Source: Alphaproteobacteria bacterium (GTDB lineage Bacteria > Pseudomonadota > Alphaproteobacteria > SHVR01). From it: 64,000 nt of DNA. The stretch lies in contig SHVR01000011.1 of NCBI GenBank assembly GCA_009694185.1, positions 216 through 64,215 of the forward strand, in the 5' to 3' direction. Below the pieces are notes generated by a model. That model ran no database searches and was not told the DNA's origin. It saw only the letters and a list, made by a program, of their open reading frames with translations. This document shows, piece by piece, positions 53,463-55,080 of the stretch (positions within the stretch are counted from its first letter, which is position 1; each line of letters starts with the position of its first letter). The translations under genes and the position numbers were made by a program.

Positions 53463-53957
53463 ATGCCGCATGCGGCAATTCGTGGCCACGCTGTCGTAAC
53501 GCAACCGGGCGAGGGCCCGTCCTATTGGCAGCCGTTGCCGGCCAACGGGCACGCCGATCCCGCCCTGTTTCCAGCCAACACCGGCTTCGACGGCCTGTCC
53601 CTGGGCTTCCAGACCGTGGCAGCCCGAAGCCGCATCCGCGAGCATTCCCACGGCGACCAGATCGAGCTGCAGATCTGTTTTCGCGGCCAGGGCCGGGTGA
53701 TGGTTGACGGCGTTGCCCACAAGCTAGTCCCTGGCACTGCCTGCTTCCTCGGCTACGATGTCAAACATGAGATCATCAATGAGGGCGACGACGAGTTGGT
53801 CATGCTGTGGGTCATCTCGCCAGCCGGCCTGGAAGATTTCTTCCGCGCCATCGGTCGCGCGCGCGACGCGGGCGAGCCGGCACCGCCGCCCTTTTCGCGC
53901 CCCGCCGATGTCGTGGCGGTCGAGCGCAAGATGGGTATGAACGATACGGTGGCCTGA
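53463..53957 (+). CDS. Cupin domain protein
   Basis: HSH...E motif 1 and H in motif 2 (VKHEIIN); SD GGGAGGG. Confidence 0.85.
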   Translation: MPHAAIRGHAVVTQPGEGPSYWQPLPANGHADPALFPANTGFDGLSLGFQTVAARSRIREHSHGDQIELQICFRGQGRVMVDGVAHKLVPGTACFLGYDVKHEIINEGDDELVMLWVISPAGLEDFFRAIGRARDAGEPAPPPFSRPADVVAVERKMGMNDTVA

Positions 53958-53974
53958 CAGGCTGTCGGGGAGCC

Positions 53975-54193
53975 CTACCCCCCGACCACCTGGCTCACTT
54001 CCGCGTCGCTCGGAAAGCGGCCCTCCTTGAGTTTGGAGAATTTGAGCACGCCGTCGACCGTGATCTCGAAGGCACCGTTCTTCGATTTCACCAGTTTCAC
54101 GTCGGCCTGGCCGACGCGCGCGATCAGGTCCCTCGCACGGAGGGCGCGCGGCTCATAGTTTCAAGACACGCAATAGGCGATATGAACTTCCAT
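53975..54193 (-). CDS. SelW/SelT/SelH (Rdx family) selenoprotein, CxxU
   Basis: MEVHIAYCVS(U)NYEPRALRARDL...GAFEITVDG..KFSKLKEGRFP; UGA at 54163-54161; SD GGAG; downstream hairpin. Confidence 0.85.
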
Positions 54194-54228
54194 GGCTCTC
54201 TCCGGTTGACCAAGTCCGACAGTATGCC

Positions 54229-54999
54229 TCACCGCCAGCCGCCGCCGCCATTCACATAGACCGTGTCGGCGGTCATATATTCCGCGGCATCGGAACACAT
54301 GAACAGCACCAGTTCGCCGATCTCCTCGGGCCGGCCGAAGCGTTTCATCGGCACGTCGTTCTTGAACTGCTCCAGCAGCGCGGGTGGGGTGTTGGCGGCG
54401 GCCTGGAAAGGCGTCTCGATCGGACCCGGCGAGATCGAGAGACAGCGGATACCGCGATCGGCGAATTCGCGCGCCACACCCAGCGTCATGGTCAAGACCG
54501 CGCCCTTGGCGGCGGCATAGTGGATCGACGCACCCGGGCCGCCGCGCTTGTGCGACATGCTGGCCATGTTGACGATCACCCCCTTGCCGTTCGCCAGCAT
54601 CAGGGGGACCACCGCCTGCATGGCATAGAAAGTGCCCTTGACGTTGAGGTCGAAGGTCTTGTCCATCAGCTCGTCGTCGATCTCGAGGAACTTGGCGCGC
54701 CGGAAGGCGGCACCCGCCGAGTTGAACAAAAAATCGACCCGCCCGAAGGCCGCCTGGGCGCGGCCGACCATGGCATCGACGGCGGCGCGGTCGGTCACGT
54801 CAACGCCAAGCGCCGCCGCCTTGCCGCCGTTCTGGGTGACCTGATTGGCCGTGCGCTCGGCGCCGGCGCCGTCCAGATCGGCTGAGAAGACGTTGGCGCC
54901 CTCGCGGGCGAAGATGAGGGCGGTCGCCCGGCCGATGCCGCTCGCGGCACCGGTGATGACGACCGTCTTGCCGACGAAATAGTCAGGGGTCTTGGGCAT
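54229..54999 (-). CDS. SDR family oxidoreductase
   Basis: TGAASGIG, NSAG, YAAAKG and VNGG. Confidence 0.9.
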   Translation of the reverse strand: MPKTPDYFVGKTVVITGAASGIGRATALIFAREGANVFSADLDGAGAERTANQVTQNGGKAAALGVDVTDRAAVDAMVGRAQAAFGRVDFLFNSAGAAFRRAKFLEIDDELMDKTFDLNVKGTFYAMQAVVPLMLANGKGVIVNMASMSHKRGGPGASIHYAAAKGAVLTMTLGVAREFADRGIRCLSISPGPIETPFQAAANTPPALLEQFKNDVPMKRFGRPEEIGELVLFMCSDAAEYMTADTVYVNGGGGWR

Positions 55000-55080
55000 G
55001 ATTCCTCGCTTCCGTGCCGCCCGACTGTAATCCACGGGACCGGCCCGCGTCAGCCCCCCTGCCTGGGATGCATCGACGTC

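Follow-up and report, generated by a model that had tools for sequence, protein, structure and literature searches.

Among the prokaryotic selenoproteins of the Sargasso Sea, the SelW-like family is reported to be the most abundant, with 48 genes (PMC1088965), and the GOS survey likewise ranks them first, giving 427 selenocysteine (Sec) forms against 56 cysteine (Cys) forms (PMC2398784). The family is listed under Pfam Rdx in a table of a 2022 review (PMC9312934), and bacterial SELENOW-like proteins are described in a further source as functionally uncharacterised (PMC13188914). The prokaryotic members (PF10262/TIGR02174) have an N-terminal C-x-x-U motif, are about 70-90 residues long and carry a SECIS element within the coding sequence, after the UGA. 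The gene described here has the same features and differs from them in nothing essential.

Two better known systems help to place it. Eukaryotic SelW makes use of a 3′-UTR SECIS element and of SBP2/eEFSec, whereas the gene described here follows the bacterial arrangement, with the element inside the coding sequence and immediately behind the UGA; mouse SelW (2npb) and MIEN1 (2ljk) have the Rdx fold and the position of the CxxU/CxxC motif in common with its product. In the SECIS element of Escherichia coli fdhF, the loop nucleotides G23 and U24 contact SelB. The hairpin found here resembles that element in its small loop with a G (CGUGC, with G-U at positions 2-3), but differs from it in the short core stem of 5 bp, in its unrelated sequence and in that no equivalent of the bulged U was identified. 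Searches of the bSECISearch type are reported to look for a hairpin shortly after the UGA, the apical loop of which is small and includes a G (PMC1088965).

The gene lies in a window of 64,000 nucleotides of alphaproteobacterial DNA (the whole stretch that was analysed; contig SHVR01000011.1 of assembly GCA_009694185.1), and coordinates given without a contig label refer to this window. On the minus strand, a Shine-Dalgarno-like GGAG at 54200-54203, taken from direct reading of the sequence, stands 6 nt upstream of an ATG at 54193. This opens a frame of 72 residues (53975-54193) that ends in a TAG at 53977-53975 and is interrupted at codon 11 by a UGA (54161-54163). In the C-x-x-U motif the resolving cysteine is Cys8, encoded by the TGC at 54170-54172; it is invariant among 80/80 distinct sequences. 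All of these positions agree with a first-pass annotation of the window made from its letters, and the translation matches that annotation exactly. The choice of start is shared by the relatives, since the ATG falls at codon -10 relative to the TGA in 76/80 distinct homolog sequences.

The same annotation had pointed out that the gene is missed by ORF calling, and this is borne out: a standard ORF list gives only two fragments, one of 41 aa (53975-54100, with a GTG start at 54100) and one of 45 aa (54161-54298), which ends at the TGA. In a protein word-index search of a public protein collection, the 41-aa fragment was the sole entry for the Rdx gene; for so short a query this kind of search is too insensitive to be informative on the annotation of relatives. 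The frame of the gene is open for 212 codons upstream.

We conclude, with a probability of about 0.92, that 54193-53975 on the minus strand is a genuine Sec-encoding Rdx (SelW-like) gene with a bSECIS-like hairpin, as the first-pass annotation had proposed. This reading draws on matches to family models, the predicted fold, conservation of the TGA, conservation and covariation of the hairpin, and co-occurrence of TGA and selA among relatives. The residual doubt concerns solely whether the organism from which the window comes still has selA, selB and selC.

The membership in the family is clear. The translated protein matches Pfam Rdx PF10262 with 63 bits (cut-off 22.6) over residues 2-70 of 72, and TIGR02174 CXXU_selWTH with 57.8 bits (cut-off 34.2), both matches spanning the UGA. 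Against the equivalog NF041051 SelTWH_Campy it scores 76.1 bits, below the 88-bit cut-off, and so is not a member; the window gene therefore belongs to a different, alphaproteobacterial subgroup, which has the signature C-x-x-U-N-Y-E-P-R-A-L-R-A. Its redox motif is C8-V-S-U11, and C8 and U11 are both invariant in 36/36 aligned proteins.

An AlphaFold model, for which the 36 aligned homologs served as input and U was replaced by C, reached a pLDDT of 91.4 and a pTM of 0.80, and places C8 and U11 between a strand (residues 2-8) and a helix (residues 14-27). The predicted protein has the thioredoxin-like beta-alpha-beta-beta-beta-alpha fold of solved Rdx proteins. Its best match in the PDB is 2fa8 (TM 0.87-0.90, rmsd 1.1 Å), the structure of Atu0228 from Agrobacterium tumefaciens, which is also the match found at the level of sequence (E = 1.2e-7). 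The same fold is seen in the other bacterial SelW-related structures 2obk, 2oka, 2ojl and 2p0g (TM 0.82-0.90), and also in 3dex. Taken together, the solved bacterial Rdx structures resemble the model with TM 0.82-0.90, rmsd 1.1-1.9 Å and 27-35% identity; 2fa8 and its solved bacterial relatives are presumably Cys forms. Mouse SelW and MIEN1 rank after the bacterial structures, with TM 0.71 and 0.78, and genuine thioredoxins reach a TM of 0.5-0.59 only.

Conservation of the UGA was followed in two sets of relatives. With each species represented by a single genome, scanning gave 217 confirmed relatives, from which the best 80 were retained. These best 80 of 217 share 51-67% identity and come mostly from alphaproteobacterial MAGs, Stellaceae and Defluviicoccus among them, and they include the isolate Desertibaculum subflavum. 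The aligned codon is TGA in 80/80 of these nearest loci, a tally that is biased towards Sec forms because one search pattern overlapped the peptide encoded by the hairpin. A class-wide sample was therefore examined as well, in which the TIGR02174 model was run over 401 alphaproteobacterial genomes drawn evenly from the class. An Rdx gene was found in 40/401 genomes: 23 of the genes, including that of the window's own genome, have one in-frame TGA, and 17 have none. The in-frame TGA is the CxxU codon in 22/22 of the other TGA-form genes. As first suggested, the UGA of the window gene occupies the second redox position of the CxxU motif: codon 11 aligns with the second Cys of the 17 Cys-form genes. 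All but one of these (16/17) fall into a separate subgroup that has no hairpin and is marked by C-[TRV]-[QG]-C and then [RQNK]-W. The exception, locus L165, is the single Cys form within the subgroup of the window gene, and it has neither the ALRAR peptide nor the hairpin.

In this class-wide alphaproteobacterial sample, more than half of the Rdx genes (23/40) are Sec forms. The first-pass expectation that the Sec type is out of the ordinary among Alphaproteobacteria must accordingly be given up, SelW-like CxxU proteins having long been known and abundant. That impression may go back to a 2006 survey of finished genomes, in which FdhA is named as the sole alphaproteobacterial selenoprotein (PMC1794560). 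Nor do the near relatives show the pattern that had been named as speaking against a selenoprotein, namely close homologs that all have TGC or TGT and no conserved hairpin, since all 80 nearest loci have the TGA and the hairpin is conserved among them.

The core of the hairpin occupies 54130-54144 on the minus strand. Its two stem arms, CCCUC (54144-54140) and GAGGG (54134-54130), enclose the loop CGUGC (54139-54135), in which G is at position 2. Measured from the end of the UGA, the distance to the stem is 17 nt and that to the loop 21-22 nt. Direct reading thus confirms the stem, loop and position of the G described in the first-pass annotation, and the geometry, with its short distance after the UGA and its small apical loop with a G, is that of a bacterial SECIS element. 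No family in Rfam matches the hairpin.

The folding energy of the region is unexceptional when compared with shuffled sequences (z = -1.41 for 64 nt and +0.36 for 44 nt). It is uninformative because the DNA has 66% GC, and conservation was used as the test instead; the support for the putative hairpin beyond chance is comparative, not thermodynamic. One line of it comes from synonymous sites. Codons +7 to +9 cover the stretch from the 3′ half of the 5′ stem arm through the loop to the first base of the 3′ arm, and at each of these positions one and the same codon is used in 80/80 distinct sequences (CTC at +7, CGT at +8 and GCG at +9). Invariant residues nearby use many codons in the same 80 sequences, all six at Arg +5 and four at Pro +4.

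The other line of support is covariation. Among the 76 closest distinct homologs the stem is nearly invariant, covariation does not rise above that of shuffles, and RNAalifold retained 4 pairs only. Owing to this near-invariance, a diverse set of 23 HMM-derived sequences was used for covariation, and in these 94.8% of cells pair, whereas slid registers do not exceed 60.9%. Six double-sided changes compensate two of the five pairs, with C-G replaced by G-C in 3 sequences and by U-A in 2, and U-A by G-C in 1. In 0/500 shuffles of the 23 diverse sequences was the observed pairing or covariation matched, a kind of control that is inflated by relatedness. The loop starts with CGUG in 23/23 of the HMM-derived sequences, and the hairpin core of the window gene is identical to the core in functional relatives.

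Beneath this core, the first-pass annotation had seen a possible lower helix formed by two CGCGCG segments, 54150-54145 and 54122-54117 (together spanning 54117-54150 on the minus strand). The helix does form in the minimum free energy (MFE) fold of the window sequence, and is a peculiarity of the window: as a conserved element it was rejected, with 37.9% of cells paired across the 76 homologs, no better than in slid registers.

A variant of the stem was observed in a number of homologs in alignment A1 (L058, L059, L063, L064, L067-L071, L078, L079, L081, L086, L087, L089 and L111), where the stem has a C-A mismatch in place of its third pair. These homologs have Lys, not Arg, at codon +10, and they almost always gain two G-C pairs at the base of the stem (GGCC...GGCC). 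The extra pairs are a possible structural compensation for the mismatch; the events are not independent, as the sequences are probably one clade.

The distribution of TGA forms among genomes follows that of the Sec machinery. A selA gene was found in 22/22 of the other TGA-form genomes, in 21 of them over the cut-off and in one with 260 bits, where it is cut by the end of a contig. It was found in 0/17 Cys-form genomes, among which there were just two weak matches of at most 42 bits. In one relative (G003), the ortholog of which is 58% identical, selA (548 bits) and tRNA-Sec (70 bits) are located on one contig.

The window's own genome is the only one of the 23 TGA-form genomes in which selA was not detected. 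Its assembly comprises 2.81 Mb in 78 contigs and is 77.21% complete, and no match to selA was obtained in it. For selB there were only matches to the GTPase domain, of at most 93 bits, and tblastn with the G003 proteins gave a like result. No tRNA-Sec scored over the cut-off in this assembly, the best match being a tRNA-Ser, and ARAGORN reported no tRNA-SeC in the whole assembly. An ARAGORN call of 'tRNA-Pyl (cta)', 91 nt long (C27:52873-52963, equal to L166:1001-1091), was considered as a miscalled tRNA-Sec and rejected, as nothing in Rfam matches it and it is embedded in a protein-coding frame that by eye resembles HisA.

By contrast with these genes, selD is present in the assembly (TIGR00476, 300 bits). 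It has no internal stop and is therefore not a Sec-type SelD. The absence of Sec machinery, which the first-pass annotation had held would tell against a selenoprotein, is thus seen in part only: selA, selB and selC were not found in this 77%-complete assembly and selD was. The selD gene, at C75:12678-14945 on the minus strand (locus L009:1384-3651, also minus), encodes a 755-aa fusion in which SelD is joined to a pyridine nucleotide-disulphide oxidoreductase domain (Pyr_redox_2), the Ndh-SelD arrangement known from the GOS paper (PMC2398784). A selU gene was not found, and so, as far as the genome is assembled, selD is not explained by selenouridine. No Sec-type formate dehydrogenase was found in the assembly either, the best match having 118 bits and no internal stop.

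Several features of the assembly bear on the missing genes. Its tRNA genes number 34, those for Asp, His, Ile, Phe and Trp not being among them, and the RNA gene complement of the bin is clearly incomplete beyond what 77% completeness implies; missing RNA genes therefore mean little. In Alphaproteobacteria, selA, selB and selC are reported to form one operon (PMC1794560), and selC is described as often nested in selB (PMC8124441), so that a single assembly gap would remove all three. Given the 77% completeness, and with selD and at least five further TGA-containing genes of selenoprotein families present, selA, selB and tRNA-Sec of this organism are most likely just unassembled.

Five such genes came from a heuristic scan that went through the complete assembly for coding frames interrupted by a UGA and looked in them for a redox motif and a hairpin. 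It gave 59 candidates, of which the 18 with a hairpin were checked against Pfam and/or NCBIfam. Five of the 18 are real, with a family match that spans the TGA in all five; the remaining 13 were rejected as selenoprotein genes, since their family matches do not span the TGA. The scan was not exhaustive, as it missed the Rdx gene itself, with its frame open 212 codons upstream. Its filter demanded a G in the first two positions of the loop, so that this trait of the five finds is given by construction. TGA is otherwise a normal stop in this genome, as shown by the SDR gene upstream of the Rdx gene, which ends in TGA.

Four of the five belong to the UGSC family, with the TGA as the U of UGSC in the motif D-U-G-S-C. 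They are found at C14:67217-67735 (minus strand), C22:9020-9976 (plus), C43:32339-32869 (minus) and C70:24150-24680 (minus), and correspond to the set of loci L118-L121. They match PF24696 with 115-162 bits and NF041046 with 111-139 bits, two of the four exceeding the 125-bit cut-off of the latter. In all four paralogs a hairpin is located 18 nt downstream of the TGA, with the loop AGUUU or UGUAU, and the stem of the C14 copy carries a compensatory change of C-G to G-C when compared with the C43 copy.

The fifth is a PrdB/GrdB-like gene of the 'selenoprotein B' type (C27:17347-19206, plus strand, locus L122). Its match to TIGR04483 spans the U and, at 86 bits, is below the cut-off; there was no match in Pfam. 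The U is residue 479 of a long open frame, in a U-P-V-C motif (U-x-x-C), and translation probably begins at a Met that lies some 140 residues upstream of it. A 7-bp hairpin with the loop CGUGA follows 17 nt after the TGA. The inventory of this genome, with SelW-like, UGSC and PrdB families and the Ndh-SelD fusion, consists of families that, according to the GOS survey, figure among the most abundant ones of aquatic microbes (PMC2398784).

Against this background, the UGA of the Rdx gene could be read in other ways. An ordinary CxxC gene might have acquired a nonsense mutation, or the TGA might be an error of sequencing or assembly, being one base away from TGC or TGT; the fact that ORF callers give a 41-aa fragment only would fit such a defect. 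However, TGA is found at the same codon in the 80 nearest loci and in the 22 class-sample genes, which come from independent assemblies, and it is followed by a hairpin that is conserved at synonymous sites. With the conservation of the TGA and of the synonymous sites in view, this reading is effectively refuted and its probability is close to nil. It is also conceivable that the UGA is read through without selenium, by near-cognate insertion of Trp or Cys or by Cys carried on tRNA(Sec), to give a CxxC or CxxW protein. That the Sec machinery is not seen in this assembly would agree with this, but among the genomes sampled TGA forms are strictly tied to selA (22/22 as against 0/17), the hairpin is of the SelB type, and selD is present, so that such readthrough is extremely unlikely.

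Failure to find selA, selB and tRNA-Sec in the assembly is also what would be expected of a relic gene, in an organism that had lately lost selA, selB and selC. Translation would then stop at the UGA, with 10 residues made, and decay would be setting in for the gene as for the UGSC and PrdB-like ones. This is very improbable, as the six UGA-containing genes, on six contigs, are intact and have full-length family matches that continue past the UGA, while selD has been kept, the Rdx hairpin core does not differ from that of functional relatives and selA accompanies every one of the other 22 TGA forms. Moreover, the assembly is just 77% complete and its tRNA set visibly incomplete. We regard it as similarly improbable that the organism truly is without selA, selB and selC and yet maintains six intact UGA genes and the Ndh-SelD fusion. 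Were the machinery really absent, either the Sec trait would have been lost very recently, or these UGAs would be decoded by a route not yet recognised. A milder and likewise improbable reading is that a SelB recognition code peculiar to the lineage, or else recurrent horizontal transfer of the gene along with its SECIS element, lies behind the near-invariance of the 16-nt hairpin core across alphaproteobacterial families.

On the preferred reading, that of a functional Sec-encoding Rdx gene, the UGA at codon 11 would be recoded as selenocysteine during translation. By analogy with Sec insertion in other bacteria, SelB-GTP carrying Sec-tRNA(Sec) would bind the hairpin as the ribosome arrives at the UGA, and would bring Sec to the ribosome, competing with release factor 2. 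The result would be a 72-residue oxidoreductase of thioredoxin fold with the predicted active site Cys8-x-x-Sec11. As a small redox protein, it would be expected to alternate between two states, a selenol/thiol form and one with a selenenylsulfide linking Cys8 and Sec11.

The window gene is an ordinary SelW-like selenoprotein gene, of a family that was reported two decades ago and is common in this class, and it leaves selenocysteine biology as known unchanged. Its main value is for annotation: gene callers reduce the Rdx gene to 41 aa, and the selenoproteomes of MAGs are undercounted as a result. Together with the four UGSC genes, the PrdB-like gene and the Ndh-SelD fusion, the Rdx gene marks this alphaproteobacterium as a user of selenium, and the selA-selB-selC locus can be flagged as missing from the bin. 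The roughly 100 TGA-form Rdx genes with their nearly invariant hairpin could also seed a covariance model for a SECIS class that Rfam does not contain.

Finally, the neighbourhood of the gene was compared between loci. Upstream on the same strand lies an SDR gene (54229-55035, minus strand; Pfam adh_short_C2, 225 bits), from the ordinary TGA stop of which (54229) the Rdx ATG is separated by a gap of 35 nt. No promoter- or terminator-like site was found in this gap, which makes co-transcription of the two genes in the window plausible, as the first-pass annotation had suggested; the pairing itself is not conserved, since an SDR-like match occurs in 2/80 homologous loci and in neither of them at the position seen in the window. 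On the other side, a convergent cupin-domain gene (53463-53957, plus strand; Pfam Cupin_2, 41.8 bits) ends 17 nt from the Rdx stop, and a cupin homolog stands beside the Rdx gene in 0/80 loci. Clustering of 458 neighbouring ORFs across loci gave no universal partner. The Rdx gene behaves as a free-standing small gene. The largest cluster of neighbouring ORFs was a shadow frame antisense to the Rdx gene itself, and was set aside as an artefact that arises in high-GC DNA from the conserved gene on the other strand. In the window, the open frame antisense to the Rdx gene is 150 aa long (53807-54259, plus strand) and has a low GC3 of 0.62.
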